From the NCBI GenBank assembly GCA_016432325.1, contig CP066684.1, positions 329,018 to 393,017 on the forward strand: a DNA stretch of 64,000 nucleotides. Direction: 5' to 3'. The notes below the pieces were generated by a model that saw nothing but the letters and a program-made list of their open reading frames with translations, made no database searches and had not been told where the DNA came from. This DNA comes from Candidatus Aenigmatarchaeota archaeon (GTDB taxonomy: Archaea; Aenigmatarchaeota; Aenigmatarchaeia; PWEA01; JACQIF01). Numbering within the stretch: position 1 is the stretch's first letter; every line of letters starts with the position of its first letter. This document shows, in pieces, positions 10,417-63,052 of the stretch. Made by a program: the position numbers and the translations under genes.

Positions 10417-11725
10417 GGAAAAAAAGAGGCAGCTCTTCGAACTGCTCAAAGAGATAGCGAAAGAGAGGAACGCGCAGAAGCGATTCGCCCCAGGGGAAAC
10501 GCTGGTACAGTATTCGGGAGACCTCGTGGACGAGAAGGAGCTCATAGCCGCCGTGGACTCTCTGATAGGGGGAAGGCTCGCGTTCGGCCAGAAGGTCGAG
10601 GAGTTCGAGAAGGAATTCGCTTCTTATCTCGGCGCCAATGAGGCCATTGCCGTCAGCACGGGTTCAGACGCCTGTCTCCTCGCGATGCAGACCATGATGA
10701 ACAAGCACATCGACAACCCGATAAAACCCGGCGACGAGGTTGTCGTTTGCGCCCTGAACTTCGCGACTCCTGTCAGTTCCCTGGTATTCAGCGGCCTTAC
10801 GCCCGTCTTCGTGGACACCACGCTGGGCAACTACACCATCAACACAGACCTGATAGAGGACGCCATAACGGACAAGACCCGAATGATCATAGCAACGCAC
10901 CTTTTCGGAAACGTTGCCGGCATGAAGAAGATAATGGAACTGTCCAAGAAACACAACCTGCGCGTCCTGGAGGACTGCTGCGACGCTCATGGTTCAATGT
11001 ACGGCGACAGGCAGGTCGGTTCGATGGGAGACGCCGGAGCGTTCTCGTTCTATCCGGCTCATGGAATGACGATGGGAGGCGAGGGAGGCATCATATCGAC
11101 CAGTGACGAGGCGCTGGCGTATACGGCCCGTTCAATCCGCATGTGGGGCCGCGCCCTTCCGTGCAAGTACTGCGGCAACGACCTGTCGAAGGAGTGCAAG
11201 CTCAAACACAATCTCGACTTGGCCGGAATGGAGGACTACGACATAAACTATCTATTCGTCAATCTCGGATTCAACTCGAAGATAACCGAAGTGCAGGGAG
11301 CGTTCGGCATAGAACAGCTGAGGAAACTGAACGCGTTCAACAGGATAAGAGAAGACAACTTCAATTTCGTAGTGAAGGCTCTCAAGCCGTACGAAGACGT
11401 CCTGATACTCCCCGAAGCGACGCCCGGTTCCAAGCCGGCATGGTATAACATCCCGCTCACGATAAGAAAGGGTGCAGCGTTCACCCGCAAAGATATCCTC
11501 GACACGCTGAAGAAGGCCAGGATAGAATACAGGAACCTTTTCGCCGGGAACATCCTGAGACAGCCCGGCTACAAGAATATCAAGCACAGGGTCGCGAGTT
11601 CCCTGGAGAACGCGGATTTCACGACAGACAACTCCTTCTTCGTGGGATGTTATCAGGGAATGACTCCCGAGATGCGCGACCACATGGTGCAGACCATCAC
11701 GCGTTTCCTGGACTCGCGCAGGTGA
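10409..11725 (+). CDS. ddhC: CDP-6-deoxy-D-xylo-4-hexulose-3-dehydrase (E1, DdhC/RfbH-like; DegT family with His replacing PLP-Lys)
   Basis: 438 aa DegT-fold; SFYPAHGMTMGGEGG (His in Lys position); Cys cluster EDCCD...CKYCGNDLSKEC resembling E1 [2Fe-2S] ligands. Confidence 0.8.
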   Translation: MLEEKKRQLFELLKEIAKERNAQKRFAPGETLVQYSGDLVDEKELIAAVDSLIGGRLAFGQKVEEFEKEFASYLGANEAIAVSTGSDACLLAMQTMMNKHIDNPIKPGDEVVVCALNFATPVSSLVFSGLTPVFVDTTLGNYTINTDLIEDAITDKTRMIIATHLFGNVAGMKKIMELSKKHNLRVLEDCCDAHGSMYGDRQVGSMGDAGAFSFYPAHGMTMGGEGGIISTSDEALAYTARSIRMWGRALPCKYCGNDLSKECKLKHNLDLAGMEDYDINYLFVNLGFNSKITEVQGAFGIEQLRKLNAFNRIREDNFNFVVKALKPYEDVLILPEATPGSKPAWYNIPLTIRKGAAFTRKDILDTLKKARIEYRNLFAGNILRQPGYKNIKHRVASSLENADFTTDNSFFVGCYQGMTPEMRDHMVQTITRFLDSRR

Positions 11726-52612: not shown

Positions 52613-54286
52613 ATGGACCTCGATACCGAAATACTCATGCACGCGCTGCGCAACGCGCTCATGCACAAGGGCCGCGCGAACGAGGGCGCCGTGATATCAA
52701 AGATAATCGGCGCGCATCCGGAACTGCGCAAGGACGCCAAGCGTACGGGCGAACTCGTGAAGCGCGTGGTCGGGGAGGTAAACTCATTGAGCGAACCGGC
52801 GCAGATGGAAGAGGCGTTGCGTCTTGGCGTCTCGCTTGAACATGAGGCGAAGCCCGAACGGGAAGGCTTGCCCGACCTTCCGAACGCGCAGGAGGGCGCG
52901 GTCGTCACGCGCTTCGCCCCGAATCCCAGCGCACCCCTGCACCTCGGACACTCGCGCGCTCTCCTGCTGTCGGGACTCTACGCAAAGAAGTATAACGGAC
53001 GCTTCATCCTGCGCTTCGACGACACGGATCCCCGCACGAAAACGCCAATGAAAGAAGCGTACGACTGGATTCTAGAGGACGTGCGCTGGTTCGGATTTGA
53101 GCCTGACGCAATCGTGCACGCCTCAGACCGGATGGATACTTACTACAAATACGCCGTGGAACTCCTGCGCAAGAGCCACGCCTACGTCTGCGACTGCGAC
53201 ACGGAGAAATGGAAGGAGCTCACGCTCGCGAAGACGGCGTGCCCGTGCCGCGCGCGAGACGCAGGCGCCCAGCATGAACGCTGGCTGAAGATGATTAACG
53301 GCGGTTACAAAGAAGGAGAGGCTGTCGTGCGCATCAAAACCGACTTGAACCACGCTGACCCTGCGATGCGCGACTGGCCGGCCCTGAGAATAATCGACGT
53401 TCCGCACACGCGAACCGGAACTGAGTATAGGGTCTGGCCCCTCTACAACCTCGCGTCTGCGATAGACGACCATGAGTTCGGCGTCACGCACGTATTCCGC
53501 GGACAGGAGCACCAGGCCAACGCGGAAAAACAGGCCTATCTCTTCAAACACATGGGATGGAAAGAACCTGACGTAGCAACGTACGGACGACTCTTCGTCA
53601 AGGGCATCGCGTTGTCAAAGAGCGAAATCGTCAAAGGCATGAAGGCCGGAACGTACAACGACTGGGAAGACCCGCGATTGGGGACGCTGCGCGCGTTGCG
53701 GCGCCGCGGCTTCCAGCCGGAAACGCTCGTGCATTTGATAGAGCATGTCGGCATAAAACCGAACAACGCGACAATATCCATGGAGAATCTTGCGGCGGAG
53801 AACAAGAAGTTCGTCGATTTCCGCGCGAATAGATACTATTTCGTCGCGAGTCCTGTCGAGTTCACACTCTCCGGAAAGTTCACGAAGAAAACCGCTGAAG
53901 TGGCTCTGCATCCGGAAGACGAGGCGCGTGGAGCGCGCACGCTGAACGTGAAGAGTAAGATTCTTCTCGACGAAAAAGACGTCGACGCGTATGGAGGCAA
54001 AGAGGTCCGTCTCAAGGGACTTTTCAACGTGAAGGTCGACGTGAAAAACAAGACATTGACTTATACGGGCGAAGCGCTGGAGCGCGAGACTCCGAAGATA
54101 CACTGGCTGCCGGCCGAGGAAACGGTCGCGTGCACCATCGTTATGGACGATGCAAGCGTCCTCCAAGGCAAGGCCGAAAAAGGCGTAACGAACGAACTGA
54201 TAGGCAACACCGTCCAGTTCGAGCGTTTCGGTTTTGTGCGCATCGACAACAAGGAGCCGTTCGCAGCGTACTTCAGCCACAAATAG
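52613..54286 (+). CDS. gltX: Glutamyl-tRNA synthetase (archaeal class I GluRS)
   Basis: HLGHSRALLLS HIGH motif, archaeal GluRS architecture; ATG 52613 with TATA 52583-52595. Confidence 0.9.
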   Translation: MDLDTEILMHALRNALMHKGRANEGAVISKIIGAHPELRKDAKRTGELVKRVVGEVNSLSEPAQMEEALRLGVSLEHEAKPEREGLPDLPNAQEGAVVTRFAPNPSAPLHLGHSRALLLSGLYAKKYNGRFILRFDDTDPRTKTPMKEAYDWILEDVRWFGFEPDAIVHASDRMDTYYKYAVELLRKSHAYVCDCDTEKWKELTLAKTACPCRARDAGAQHERWLKMINGGYKEGEAVVRIKTDLNHADPAMRDWPALRIIDVPHTRTGTEYRVWPLYNLASAIDDHEFGVTHVFRGQEHQANAEKQAYLFKHMGWKEPDVATYGRLFVKGIALSKSEIVKGMKAGTYNDWEDPRLGTLRALRRRGFQPETLVHLIEHVGIKPNNATISMENLAAENKKFVDFRANRYYFVASPVEFTLSGKFTKKTAEVALHPEDEARGARTLNVKSKILLDEKDVDAYGGKEVRLKGLFNVKVDVKNKTLTYTGEALERETPKIHWLPAEETVACTIVMDDASVLQGKAEKGVTNELIGNTVQFERFGFVRIDNKEPFAAYFSHK

Positions 54287-60374: not shown

Positions 60375-60398
60375 AGACGGAACCGACGTCTGCTAAAA

Positions 60399-60488
60399 TC
60401 AGATGAAGACTGCTATAAGCATAACCATTATCCCGGCCAAGACCAAGAGCCTCTGGTTCTGCCTGGCGTACCAACCCATACTGTTCAT
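60399..60488 (-). other. Possible 29-aa hydrophobic peptide (MNSMGWYARQNQRLLVLAGIMVMLIAVFI)
   Basis: ATG ~35 nt from palindromic TATA at 60518-60527 on minus side. Confidence 0.15.
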
Positions 60489-60607
60489 AGGTCTCGCACT
60501 AGTTTAGTAAATGATAGTTATTTAAGCGCGTTGTGTCTGCTCCACAACGAATTGATAAGCCATTCTCTCGTGAACGCAGAATAGTAGGAAGGGCGTTCCA
60601 TACTTAC

Positions 60608-60753
60608 CTGCCTTGGGGTAGGTTGGGTAAATGATGGAAGGGGTTCTTCCATACTTACCTGCCTCGAATTAGGTTGGGTAAGTGATGGAAGGGCGGGGTG
60701 TGGGGTGGTAGAATAGGATCGATCCGCCCTTCCAGTGTGGGGGTGTGTCATTG
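60608..60753. repeat. Structured tandem repeat locus: 51-nt direct repeat (x2) of TTCCATACTTACCTGCC-N6-TAGGTTGGGTAARTGATGGAAGG, flanked by GGAAGGGCG...CGCCCTTCC inverted repeat
   Basis: Units at 60616-60661 and 60667-60712; GGAAGGG x3 direct plus 1 inverted copy; TATA TTATTTAAGC at 60518-60527. Confidence 0.6.
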
Positions 60754-60856
60754 AATGACAATGATGATGCGGTTTGTTCATTTTTCCGCATACACTGGAC
60801 ACACTTGATTCATCCCGTGCAAAATAACGGGATAGGAGCGTACAACATTCTGTACG

Positions 60857-60876
60857 CCCCTCGTTGAAACAATGGG
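60857..60876 (-). terminator. Putative ftsZ terminator hairpin followed by T-tract
   Basis: GCGTACA-acattc-TGTACGC directly after ftsZ stop; minus-strand reading continues into TTATTTT. Confidence 0.3.
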
Positions 60877-60877
60877 T

Positions 60878-62011
60878 TTACCTTATCATGGGTATTCCGA
60901 GGCTGTCGGAGTACGACACCGAGGAGCTCTCCCTGGTTTCCGCGCGGCCCAGCACGTACGGGCTCTTCACGCCGGTCACAATCGTTATGACCTGCACGCG
61001 GCCGTTGAACTCAGGCAGTACGCGCGCTCCCCAGATGACCTGCGCTTCAGGGTTGAGGTGCTTTATCACGTACTCTCCAATGGTGTTGATCTCTTCCAGC
61101 TTCAGGTCTTCTCCGCCGATGACCTGCACAATCGCCCCGTTGCCTCCTGCAATGTCCGCTTCGAGCAAGGGGTGCTTCAGGGCTTTTGCCACGGCCTGCG
61201 AGGCGCGTGCGCCAGAGTCGTCGTCTCCTATGCCTATCAGAGCTACGCCACCCGAGTGCATTATCGCCTTCACGTCAGCGTAGTCCAGGTTCACGAGCGA
61301 CGGCTGCGTTATGGTCTCTGTAAGACCCTTTATCATCGTCGATACGAGCTCGTCTGCGACAGCGAACGCCTGCTTTACGGGCAGGTCGCCTGCGTACTGC
61401 AGCAGCTTCTGGTTCTCTATCACGATTACCGTGTCTGCAGCCGCGCGGAGCCTTGAAAGGCCGTCTTCTGCCTTGTTTATGCGGGTTCCTTCCATCTTGA
61501 ACGGCATCGTCACCGTCGCTATTACGATGGCGCCCATCTGTTTCGCGATTTCGGCCACAACAGGCGCGCAACCCGTTCCTGTTCCGCCACCGAGCCCTGT
61601 CGTTATGAAGAGCATGTCGCAGCCGTCGAGGGCTTCCTTTATCTCGCGCCTGCTCTCCTCCGCGGCCTTGCGGCCTACCTCAGGATATCCTCCTGCTCCG
61701 AGACCCTTGGTAAGTTCCTTTCCTATCAGAATCTTCTTGTGGGCCTTTATCGAAGACAAGTGTCTGGCGTCTGTGTTCAGCGCTATCGTGGACGCTCCTG
61801 ATATTCCCATTTCGGTAAGCGTGTTTATCGTGTTTGAACCGCCGCCTCCGCAACCCGCAACAAGTATGCGTGCCTGGTGCATCTCGAGTCCGAACTCCTC
61901 GCTTATCTTCTGGGCGTCAGAGCCTGTCGGTCCGCCTGCCAGAGAAGCCTGCTTCTGTGTTCCAGCGGCGCCGAATGTTTTTTCGAATGCGTTCTGTATT
62001 ATTGAATCCAT
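60878..62011 (-). CDS. ftsZ: Cell division GTPase FtsZ
   Basis: GGGTGTG tubulin motif, GLGAGGYPEVGRKAAEES; SD GGAGGGAGGA ~8 nt upstream. Confidence 0.9.
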   Translation of the reverse strand: MDSIIQNAFEKTFGAAGTQKQASLAGGPTGSDAQKISEEFGLEMHQARILVAGCGGGGSNTINTLTEMGISGASTIALNTDARHLSSIKAHKKILIGKELTKGLGAGGYPEVGRKAAEESRREIKEALDGCDMLFITTGLGGGTGTGCAPVVAEIAKQMGAIVIATVTMPFKMEGTRINKAEDGLSRLRAAADTVIVIENQKLLQYAGDLPVKQAFAVADELVSTMIKGLTETITQPSLVNLDYADVKAIMHSGGVALIGIGDDDSGARASQAVAKALKHPLLEADIAGGNGAIVQVIGGEDLKLEEINTIGEYVIKHLNPEAQVIWGARVLPEFNGRVQVITIVTGVKSPYVLGRAETRESSSVSYSDSLGIPMIR

Positions 62012-62152
62012 TTCAAATCCTCCCTCCTTTGTTTTTGATGACTTTTGGTGATCGTGAAGTTCTCACGGTCCCCCGATTTGTAGACTGTAAAATATACTTT
62101 CGAGCGTAGATACGCTTTTTAAGTACCTTTTACAGACTATCCTCTAGAAGTT

Positions 62153-62299
62153 GTTTGCCCAAACTCTTCCGGACACTTGCCCAAGTGTTCTTCGTTACCA
62201 AATTCGGTGCGTGAAGGTTTCACGTGAACCCGTTGCCCAACGGGTGCAGTCCAATCGTTTGCCCGAACGAAGCGGATTGCGAGTGTGAAACACGGTTTC
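62153..62299. repeat. Array of six inverted-repeat elements upstream of ftsZ (GTTTG-CC-CAAAC, CACTTG-CC-CAAGTG, ACCCGTTG-CC-CAACGGGT, CGTTTG-CC-CGAACG, GTGAA-GGT-TTCAC, GAAAC-ACG-GTTTC)
   Basis: Read directly in sequence at 62153, 62175, 62211, 62228, 62256, 62287. Confidence 0.55.
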
Positions 62300-62476
62300 T
62301 GCACGGTTTTAGTGTTTTTACTACCCGTGAGGACGCCTTATAAACATTTGTATAATGGAGAATATACATCCGACTAGACGAATTGCAAATCGACAACTTA
62401 CGAAGTTCTTGGAAAGCGAGGAAGTTCGAAACGCGTGCACATTCCGACAAAACGTGAAGGTTGCCGTCGCGCGGTC

Positions 62477-63052
62477 TTACTGTTTCTTCGGCCTTTCGAG
62501 CGCGTTGATTCTCTTGAGTTCACGCTCTATCTTGTCTATCGCGCGCTCGACGTCCGCGACGTTGCGCCCGCCTGTGCAAACTATCTTCCCAGAGCCGAAA
62601 AGAAGGAACGCAACGTTGGGTTCGTCCATCCTGTAGACGAGGCCCGGGAACTGTTCGGGTTCGTATTCTGCATTCGGCAGGGAAAACGCTATCTCGTTAA
62701 GCTTGAGCGTGCCTTCGATGCGGGCCGAAGCCACTATATTCTCTATCCGTATCTTGGGCTTGTCGTTGATTTCGACCCCGATGCTCTTTATCGCTTCGAT
62801 AACCTTGCCCATCGCTTTCCGCGCGAGCGCAGGCGAGCGGGCGCCTGTGCAGACGACCTTGCCGGAAGTGAATATCAGGGAAGCGGCCTTGGGCTCCTTC
62901 ATGCGATAGACGAGGCCGGGGAACTGTTCGGGTTCGTATTCTGTGCCGGGAACCCTGGCGACAAGCTTGTTGAGCGGGACCTTGACGTTCAGAGTAGCTG
63001 ACGCAACCACGTTTTCTATCCGAATATCCTTTGCCGTACGGATGCACCCCAA
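62477..63052 (-). CDS. tbp: TATA-box binding protein
   Basis: Two direct repeats with EYEPEQFPGLVYRM in each; TTG start. Confidence 0.9.
   Translation of the reverse strand: MGCIRTAKDIRIENVVASATLNVKVPLNKLVARVPGTEYEPEQFPGLVYRMKEPKAASLIFTSGKVVCTGARSPALARKAMGKVIEAIKSIGVEINDKPKIRIENIVASARIEGTLKLNEIAFSLPNAEYEPEQFPGLVYRMDEPNVAFLLFGSGKIVCTGGRNVADVERAIDKIERELKRINALERPKKQ

Follow-up and report, generated by a model that had tools for sequence, protein, structure and literature searches.

A hairpin array conserved upstream of ftsZ in one Aenigmatarchaeota lineage, a candidate small RNA gene

The spacer upstream of ftsZ

The stretch of DNA analysed here, referred to below as the window, covers 64,000 nucleotides of contig CP066684.1 from a Candidatus Aenigmatarchaeota archaeon. 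It carries an ftsZ gene (60878-62011, minus strand), the product of which has the Tubulin and FtsZ_C domains (Pfam). A 465-bp spacer (62012-62476) lies between ftsZ and the gene for the TATA-binding protein (TBP; 62477-63052), which is also on the minus strand and upstream of the spacer, so that the spacer is also the 3' flank of the TBP gene. It contains an array of palindromes, which is very probably the DNA image of an RNA hairpin array conserved beside ftsZ in one Aenigmatarchaeota lineage. As described in a first-pass annotation of this DNA, the spacer is AT-richer than its flanks (GC content of 0.458 against 0.564 for the window); that annotation saw no open reading frame (ORF) in about 350 bp of it. 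A small protein encoded there was rejected because the small ORFs of the spacer are not conserved in relatives. The six palindromes listed in that annotation are all present exactly where it had placed them:

62153-62164: palindrome GTTTGCCCAAAC
62174-62187: palindrome CACTTGCCCAAGTG
62211: palindrome GTGAAGGTTTCAC
62228: palindrome ACCCGTTGCCCAACGGGT
62256-62269: palindrome CGTTTGCCCGAACG
62287: palindrome GAAACACGGTTTC

The sequence TTGCCCAA occurs at three sites in the 64-kb window, all on the plus strand and inside 86 bp (62155-62240). Four of the six window sites of the broader motif TTGCCCRA are in the spacer, the fourth copy, TTGCCCGA, lying 19 bp past the TTGCCCAA trio. Five perfect hairpins with stems of 5 bp or more fall within a 181-nt core; dinucleotide shuffles gave a mean of 1.25, and 11 of 1000 reached five. 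Only one other stretch of the window (about 53821-54000, 181 nt) also has five such hairpins. When read as RNA on the plus strand, the strand opposite ftsZ, the array takes the following form (loop motif in brackets):

About 62146-62319, plus strand: proposed small RNA of about 170 nt carrying the hairpin array, with predicted start at A62146 in cTAGAAG and predicted end at T-runs
62147-62169, plus strand: hairpin 1, GAAG-uu-GUUU[GCCC]AAAC-u-CUUC, which holds the palindrome at 62153-62164
62171-62190, plus strand: hairpin 2, GGACACUU[GCCC]AAGUGUUC, which holds the palindrome at 62174-62187 and has one G.U pair, on the plus strand only
62228-62245, plus strand: hairpin 3, ACCCGUU[GCCC]AACGGGU
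62246-62280, plus strand: hairpin 4, an outer GCAGUCC/GGAUUGC stem (one G.U pair) around CGUUU[GCCC]GAACG (U.G closing pair), with the inner palindrome at 62256-62269
62287-62299, plus strand: hairpin 5, GAAAC-ACG-GUUUC, without the loop motif

The interval 62144-62320 folds with -55.2 kcal/mol (z = -1.95). The RNA of about 170 nt is predicted to fold into five or six separate hairpins, four of which show the loop UUGCCC(A/G)A, joined by A/C-rich linkers that cannot mispair.

Conservation of the array beside ftsZ

In total, 160 ftsZ loci (designated L and a number) were fetched from species-representative genomes and metagenomes, and the hairpin counts in the next paragraph refer to the 107 loci at which the FtsZ alignment begins with residue 1 (full-length match). 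Nearly all relatives of the FtsZ protein come from metagenome-assembled genomes labelled Aenigmatarchaeota. The nearest is L042, with 89% identity over the part present. A metagenome scan for a deeper alignment of the window's own clade gave nothing above 72% FtsZ identity and left L042 as the sole close relative; an exact-protein look-up matched only the source contig (Logan SRR12113384) and gave no transcript-like contigs.

The 400 nt upstream of ftsZ contain 108 perfect hairpins (stems of 6 bp or more, YYGG in the loop when read on the ftsZ strand) at these loci, against at most five in any other 200-bp bin within about 4 kb and 11 in the opposite orientation. The first-pass annotation had made its proposal depend on conservation upstream of orthologous ftsZ genes, and the hairpins are indeed kept there: 88 of the 107 loci carry one to four strict motif hairpins, and some hold more motif copies than strict hairpins. 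These 88 loci have 105 different hairpins, with stems that are unrelated in sequence and nevertheless Watson-Crick paired at 823 of 870 stem positions. The loops are lineage-specific and read UUGGGC(A/G), UCGGGCA, UUGGCG, UCGGCAA, CUGGACA or UUGGGGG on the ftsZ strand, corresponding to GCCCAA, GCCCGA, CGCCAA, GUCCAG, UGCCGA and the like on the opposite strand. The orientation of the motif is near-uniform across loci.

The comparison with L042 illustrates this behaviour. A hairpin of other sequence stands at the place of hairpin 1, and GAAAC...GUUUC of hairpin 5 is kept. The ortholog of hairpin 3, which precedes the TTCACGTGAA box described below, reads AACCUUUU[GCCC]GAAAGGUU, with a fully compensated stem and an unchanged loop (as DNA, ACCCGTT-GCCC-AACGGGT in the window versus AACCTTTT-GCCC-GAAAGGTT in L042). 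In L040, L044 and L071, at about -210 to -150 from the ftsZ ATG, simple hairpins give way to two copies of GGGCTTATAACAGAA in direct repeat. An alignment of clade A with MAFFT and RNAalifold recovered one hairpin only; stems this variable cannot be aligned by sequence, and the two-strand energy comparison from it was unusable.

The array is linked to one kind of ftsZ gene. At 54 loci whose FtsZ lacks the N-terminal ~40 residues (L023, L028, L034-L037, L048, L049 and about 45 more), neither the array nor the conserved promoter block TTTAAAAGCATTTCG was found; some genomes have two such extension-less genes (L048 and L069; L036 and L046). The array thus marks one FtsZ clade. TBP is not upstream of ftsZ in any related locus, the sole tblastn match (L032) being downstream of its ftsZ on the opposite strand, which argues that the array belongs to ftsZ and not to the upstream gene. 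There is also no sign of dispersal of the type of REP or BIME elements: the TTGCCCAA sites are all in the spacer, and within about 4 kb on either side the hairpins of related loci occur only upstream of ftsZ.

Putative promoters and terminator

Three putative promoters and one candidate terminator surround the array. The promoter function of P1, P2 and P3 is inferred from the archaeal consensus of the B recognition element (BRE) and TATA box.

62088-62102, minus strand: P3, putative proximal ftsZ promoter, BRE-like CGAAAG and TATA-like TATATTTTA (62088-62096)
62106-62123, plus strand: P2, putative promoter pointing away from ftsZ, TTTTTAAG at 62116-62123 after a degenerate BRE
62338-62350, minus strand: P1, putative distal promoter pointing towards ftsZ and into the array, CAAATG-TTTATAA
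62305-62321, plus strand: candidate oligo-U terminator GGTTTTAGTGTTTTTAC (T4 at 62307-62310, T5 at 62315-62319), of which the TTAGTGTTTTTACTA core is identical in L042

The two TATA boxes reported in the first-pass annotation exist and are best read as the back-to-back promoter pair P3/P2. P3 is followed by a 5' untranslated region (UTR) of about 60 nt and by the Shine-Dalgarno sequence GGAGGGAGGA just before the ATG at 62011, and its consensus AAAATATAT is found at the same place in 91 of the 107 loci. P2, which in relatives reads CGAAATGC-TTTTTAAG (BRE/TATA, also given as CGAAATGC-TTTTTAAA), is the block with the highest conservation in the spacer throughout the clade (reading TTTAAAAGCATTTCGC from the ftsZ side) and does not differ between the window and L042. 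At the canonical distance of about 30 nt from the start of its TATA box, almost all lineages have a conserved T|AGAA. P1 consists of a strong BRE/TATA (e.g. acGAAAACTTTATAAATA) at the same place in nearly all lineages, identical in L042. In L040, L044 and L071 it is an exact inverted copy of the proximal P2 block GAAATGCTTTTTAAG, and this supports reading that sequence as a promoter.

The order on the ftsZ strand, from distal to proximal, is P1, the array with TTCAC boxes, a conserved TTCTA(A/G)A, about 20 nt that are often palindromic, and TTTAAAAGCATTTCGC, then six bases, AAAATATAT (P3), the 5' UTR and the Shine-Dalgarno sequence. P2 and P3 stand back-to-back, and P1 and P2, both well formed by the archaeal BRE/TATA/initiator pattern, converge on the array. 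Opposite ftsZ, most lineages have a T-run of at least four after the last hairpin, whereas the ftsZ strand of the window and of L042 has no such run between the array and ftsZ.

Positions 62081-62099 and 62121-62139 form a 19-nt inverted repeat (84% complementary), P3 and P2 being near mirror images. The sequence TTTTACAG(T/A)CTA follows each of their TATA boxes and is common to L042; it may serve, between TATA box and start site, as an operator common to both.

Probable RNA hairpins and DNA boxes

The array is very probably a hairpin element at the level of RNA, whichever strand carries it. A protein that reads double-stranded DNA conserves its half-sites. The loops of the array are conserved on freely covarying stems, which argues for RNA and against a double-stranded DNA operator or an origin recognition box (ORB). 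The structured non-coding RNA (ncRNA) suggested in the first-pass annotation is thus supported: upstream of the ftsZ orthologs the hairpins are conserved, their stems covary and the loop stays fixed, and there is no Rfam match. The Rfam scan gave no match at gathering threshold in the window and, at E of at most 10 in the spacer, only SNORD48, with 15 bits against a cut-off of 36; an Rfam 15 scan of 21 related loci detected tRNAs only. Literature searches on Aenigmarchaeota with ftsZ and ncRNA, on small RNAs of DPANN archaea and on the motif found no paper describing the array, which we regard as a previously undescribed, new family.

The spacer also contains an element of another kind, with no strand assigned:

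62210-62228: TTCAC box, the hairpin CGTGAA-GGT-TTCACG overlapping the perfect 10-bp palindrome TTCACGTGAA (62219-62228)

The GTGAA-GGT-TTCAC palindrome of the first-pass annotation falls in this class and not among the loop-motif hairpins. TTCACGTGAA has a single exact copy in the window. Related AACCTTCACG / GAACTTCACG boxes are found at 62453-62462, 62210-62219 and 62053-62062, and AACCTTCACG has exactly two window copies, both in the spacer. In many lineages, TTCAC(GTGAA) boxes occur upstream of P1, inside the array and beside P3, and their sequence is kept, unlike that of the hairpin arms. A kept sequence and a place near promoters are what an operator would show, and the TTCACGTGAA box probably serves a DNA-binding protein that regulates the ftsZ locus. 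Its core equals the centre of bacterial parS (TGTTTCACGTGAAACA), a resemblance given as a remark only. The multi-site double-stranded DNA platform proposed in the first-pass annotation may accordingly hold for the TTCAC/GTGAA boxes. It is not supported for the TTG-CC-CAA palindromes, in which the asymmetric centre alone is conserved and the arms covary.

That the motif itself acts in DNA, as TTGGGCA-type sites of an ftsZ upstream control region bound by a transcription factor or by a protein recognizing extruded cruciforms or single-stranded hairpins, is improbable. This explanation would account for the arm-less repeats (six GGGCA copies in L041, five GCCC copies in L065) and for the orientation flips described below, both of which are common for DNA sites. 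It also agrees with the position of the array between and beside promoters, with the pseudo-palindromic nature of TTG-NN-CAA and with the genuine DNA box TTCACGTGAA interleaved with the array. However, arms that differ in sequence at 88 loci and yet remain complementary would be useless to a reader of duplex DNA, the asymmetric conserved centre is oriented one way at almost every locus (108 versus 11), and duplex DNA offers no account of the asymmetry between A.C and G.T positions (see below). An ORB-like origin element, a set of terminators of the TBP gene or a chance cluster would be compatible with a spacer that is AT-richer than its flanks and lies downstream of the TBP stop codon, and TTCACGTGAA loosely resembles the dyad-symmetric cores of mini-ORBs. 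All three have a very low probability. ORB copies keep their sequence and flank an unwinding element in inverted order, whereas the arms here vary and the copies are co-oriented; no Orc1/Cdc6 domain was detected in the six ORFs scanned around the spacer, and the ORB-like element of the first-pass annotation is not supported. Termination of TBP was rejected because the other loci have a different upstream neighbour and the array keeps its fixed distance from ftsZ, and chance is excluded by the conservation in 88 loci.

The candidate transcribed strand

We propose that the array is a separate small RNA gene on the plus strand, running from P2 to the T-runs, and assign a probability of about 55% to this statement as a whole, strand included. 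That a small RNA is made from the strand opposite ftsZ is, judged from pairing, folding and the T-run of the candidate terminator, fairly likely. In the motif hairpins, as read on the ftsZ strand, the interior non-Watson-Crick positions comprised 20 A.C and 4 G.T, with eight other mismatch types together accounting for 19 (p = 0.0015). The A.C excess favours the opposite strand, because only there are such positions G.U wobbles. Random hairpins from other parts of these loci showed no such excess, A.C and G.T being equal (736 versus 802). An alignment of clade B (A3, 17 sequences, three helices) had 84.8% standard pairs on the antisense strand and 28 cells with G.U on that strand versus 13 with G.U on the ftsZ strand, one pair being AU in five and GU in nine sequences. 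In 27 of 28 loci, the antisense strand had the lower z-score of the minimum free energy (mean -3.45 versus -1.63), including seven of the eight loci whose base composition favours the other strand. For the window, the 62130-62330 fold had z = -3.2 on the plus strand and z = -0.66 on the minus strand.

Several observations weigh against the proposed plus-strand gene. In a stricter and larger hairpin set, the wobble asymmetry was moderate and weaker (A.C 19 versus G.T 9, p = 0.09), and T-runs of five or more within the array showed no overall strand bias (23 versus 24). P1 is as well formed as P2 and enters the array from the other side, so that the ftsZ strand may also be transcribed. The UUGGCG lineage (L019, L021) has internal T-runs, up to T6, on the proposed RNA strand. 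The array is flipped, with the C-rich motif on the ftsZ strand and the promoter blocks in place, in three small lineages, L029/L116, L059/L160 and L065/L142/L144/L158, and in L041, L059 and L065 the motif is repeated three to six times without hairpin arms. Finally, a scan of the window for loop-complementary UYGGGC sites near start codons gave no clear targets.

The array could instead be RNA on the ftsZ strand. P1 would then yield a long structured leader or a short sense RNA with G-rich loops (UUGGGC, UCGGGC, UUGGCG), and a loop-binding protein or an antisense RNA from P2 would control read-through into ftsZ or its translation, resembling CsrA-type leaders or kissing-loop antisense control. 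This is a possible, if doubtful, reading. It is consistent with the canonical BRE/TATA of P1, which points towards ftsZ and is kept as described above; a P1 transcript would reach ftsZ, because no T-run of at least four stands on the ftsZ strand between P1 and ftsZ in the window and L042. Antisense recognition loops follow the YUNR U-turn pattern, and most loops of the array start with UUGG or CUGG and fit it. Flipped arrays between unchanged promoters are most easily tolerated if both strands are transcribed, the T6 runs of L019 and L021 are on the other strand, and a leader requires the tight cis linkage to ftsZ. On the other hand, the wobbles (20:4, 19:9 and 28:13) and the z-scores of all but one of the 28 loci favour the other strand, and the minus-strand fold of the window is no better than shuffles. 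In clade A, moreover, the ftsZ strand has T5-T6 runs in the array directly before GGGC, which are expected to stop archaeal RNA polymerase, and the transcript would need to cross P2 and P3, two more putative promoters. In archaea, long 5' leaders are generally rare.

It is also conceivable, although unlikely, that both convergent promoters transcribe the array, giving G-rich U-turn loops on a long leader of ftsZ and the complementary C-rich loops on a small antisense RNA. Multivalent contacts, between the two RNAs or by a loop-specific protein, would be made possible by the identical repeated loops, and the result would be an RNA-based switch setting ftsZ output in these host-dependent, genome-reduced archaea. 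Such transcription predicts flipped arrays between unchanged promoters as well as a P1 that is an inverted P2, and both are observed, the latter in L040, L044 and L071. If true, the switch would be a cell-division control module without a described counterpart in archaea.

Proposed mechanism

For the plus-strand small RNA gene, transcription would begin from the P2 element TTTTTAAG, back-to-back with the ftsZ promoter, and the RNA would start near 62146 and end at the T-runs at 62307-62319. The loop would be its working part, presented several times as a multivalent platform for one trans-acting partner, because it is kept while the stems change freely and is repeated two to six times per RNA. 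One candidate partner is an RNA-binding protein, which the RNA would sequester as a sponge or bring together as a scaffold; another is a G-rich RNA with sequences of the UYGG(G)C type. The drift of two or three bases beside an invariant CC/GG core suggests co-evolution with such a partner. Since the compact bidirectional promoter region is shared and the array is never separated from ftsZ, the RNA gene may be co-regulated with ftsZ or act on its expression.

To our knowledge, almost nothing is known of the regulation of cell division in DPANN archaea, and very few ncRNAs have been described in them. The element is conserved across roughly ninety uncultured lineages, and its anatomy is clear, with hairpins that repeat one loop between putative promoters and a run resembling a terminator. 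It provides a testable link, on the scale of a phylum, between a candidate ncRNA and a division gene in archaea that cannot so far be grown alone, and would add a family to RNA databases and improve the annotation of these genomes.

Comparison with known systems

By its design the array would work most like a multi-hairpin sponge RNA or a small RNA with C-rich loops, and by its location it recalls StfZ of Escherichia coli. It appears to be a member of none of these classes, because it has no Rfam match, carries another motif, belongs to another domain of life and would overlap the ftsZ mRNA only hypothetically.

Like the bacterial sponge RNAs CsrB and RsmZ, the array has several hairpins with one shared short loop motif on variable stems, and the repeat number varies by species, in line with the one to four strict hairpins per locus and the 105 distinct stems reported above. 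Unlike them, it is archaeal, is fixed beside ftsZ and carries GCCCRA (UYGGGC on the other strand) instead of A(N)GGA; a GGA or ANGGA loop of the CsrB type is not general, GGA being found only in minor lineages (CUGGACA, L014 and L017). If the plus strand is the RNA, the repeated C-rich unpaired loops on an RNA of about 100-200 nt would resemble RsaE and RoxS of Firmicutes, whose C-rich motifs pair with G-rich ribosome-binding regions. However, there is no sequence relation to RsaE/RoxS, the array motif is lineage-specific (GCCCAA, CGCCAA, GUCCAG, UGCCGA), and its C-rich loops are not complementary to the GGAGG/GAGGUG Shine-Dalgarno sequence upstream of ftsZ.

In E. coli, StfZ and DicF are ncRNAs that control ftsZ, and StfZ is reported to be encoded on the opposite strand in the spacer upstream of the gene (PMC9628754, PMC5069750), as a plus-strand RNA from the array would be. 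StfZ is reported to overlap the ftsZ mRNA itself, whereas a plus-strand RNA would overlap only the hypothetical P1 leader and not the proximal 5' UTR: the predicted RNA (62146-62319) is upstream of P3 (62088-62102), and overlap would arise only if P1 transcripts reach ftsZ. StfZ and DicF are not known to have a repeated loop motif, and they have no homology to the array.

The kissing-loop systems CopA/CopT, RNAI/RNAII and hok/sok offer another likeness, as convergent promoters over a short hairpin-rich segment would give two fully complementary, hairpin-folded RNAs with loops able to kiss, and many loops of the array start with YUNR-like UUGG or CUGG. This likeness supposes transcription of both strands. 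In contrast to the array, which is conserved at the level of a phylum, these systems reside on plasmids or at toxin loci and neither need nor are known to have one loop repeated in every hairpin. The array shares with the archaeal ORB and mini-ORB elements only dyad symmetry and a place in an AT-richer intergenic spacer; ORBs are next to orc1/cdc6, with conserved sequence and copies inverted around an unwinding element.

Other features of the window and related loci

Further genes neighbouring ftsZ in the window encode aIF5B, a nitroreductase and the RNase P subunit Pop5 (Pfam). Downstream of ftsZ, in a non-coding gap of about 500 bp (60375-60877), positions 60596-60693 consist of two tandem copies with a 51-nt period and 89% identity, and the unit could form a long hairpin, CTTCCAT..TTACC..GGTAA..ATGGAAG. 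The region immediately past the ftsZ stop codon is likewise enriched for hairpins, differing in sequence, at related loci.

Several loci have one or, in some cases, two tRNA-Asn(GTT) genes past the array, at a distance of about 150-2000 nt and on the other strand from ftsZ (L017, 3184-3260; L018, 3497-3571; L030, 3264-3453; L051, 3280-3352; L054, 3242-3315; also L026 and L039). As this distance varies, P1 is not the promoter of the tRNA gene. The idea that the loops (CCR and a purine) mimic a tRNA feature or specify tRNA-Pro was dropped as unsupported, the recurrent neighbour being tRNA-Asn(GTT).

One large clade has the conserved palindrome CATGTGC-N3-4-GGCACATAC in the ftsZ 5' UTR or at the start site, as in L057 (about -85 to -65 from the ftsZ ATG), L051, L054, L060, L074 and about 20 more; it is absent from the window. 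Sometimes a second palindrome, GTATGC-N-GCATAC, follows. Because its arms are conserved in sequence, the CATGTGC palindrome is probably a DNA operator.

Elsewhere in the window, ARAGORN predicted an 87-nt tRNA-Asp at 10597-10683 with the unusual anticodon ATC at position 30, for which the Rfam tRNA model gave no match at gathering threshold in the window. Most probably the prediction is false; failing that, the tRNA would be an atypical one, for instance with an intron.

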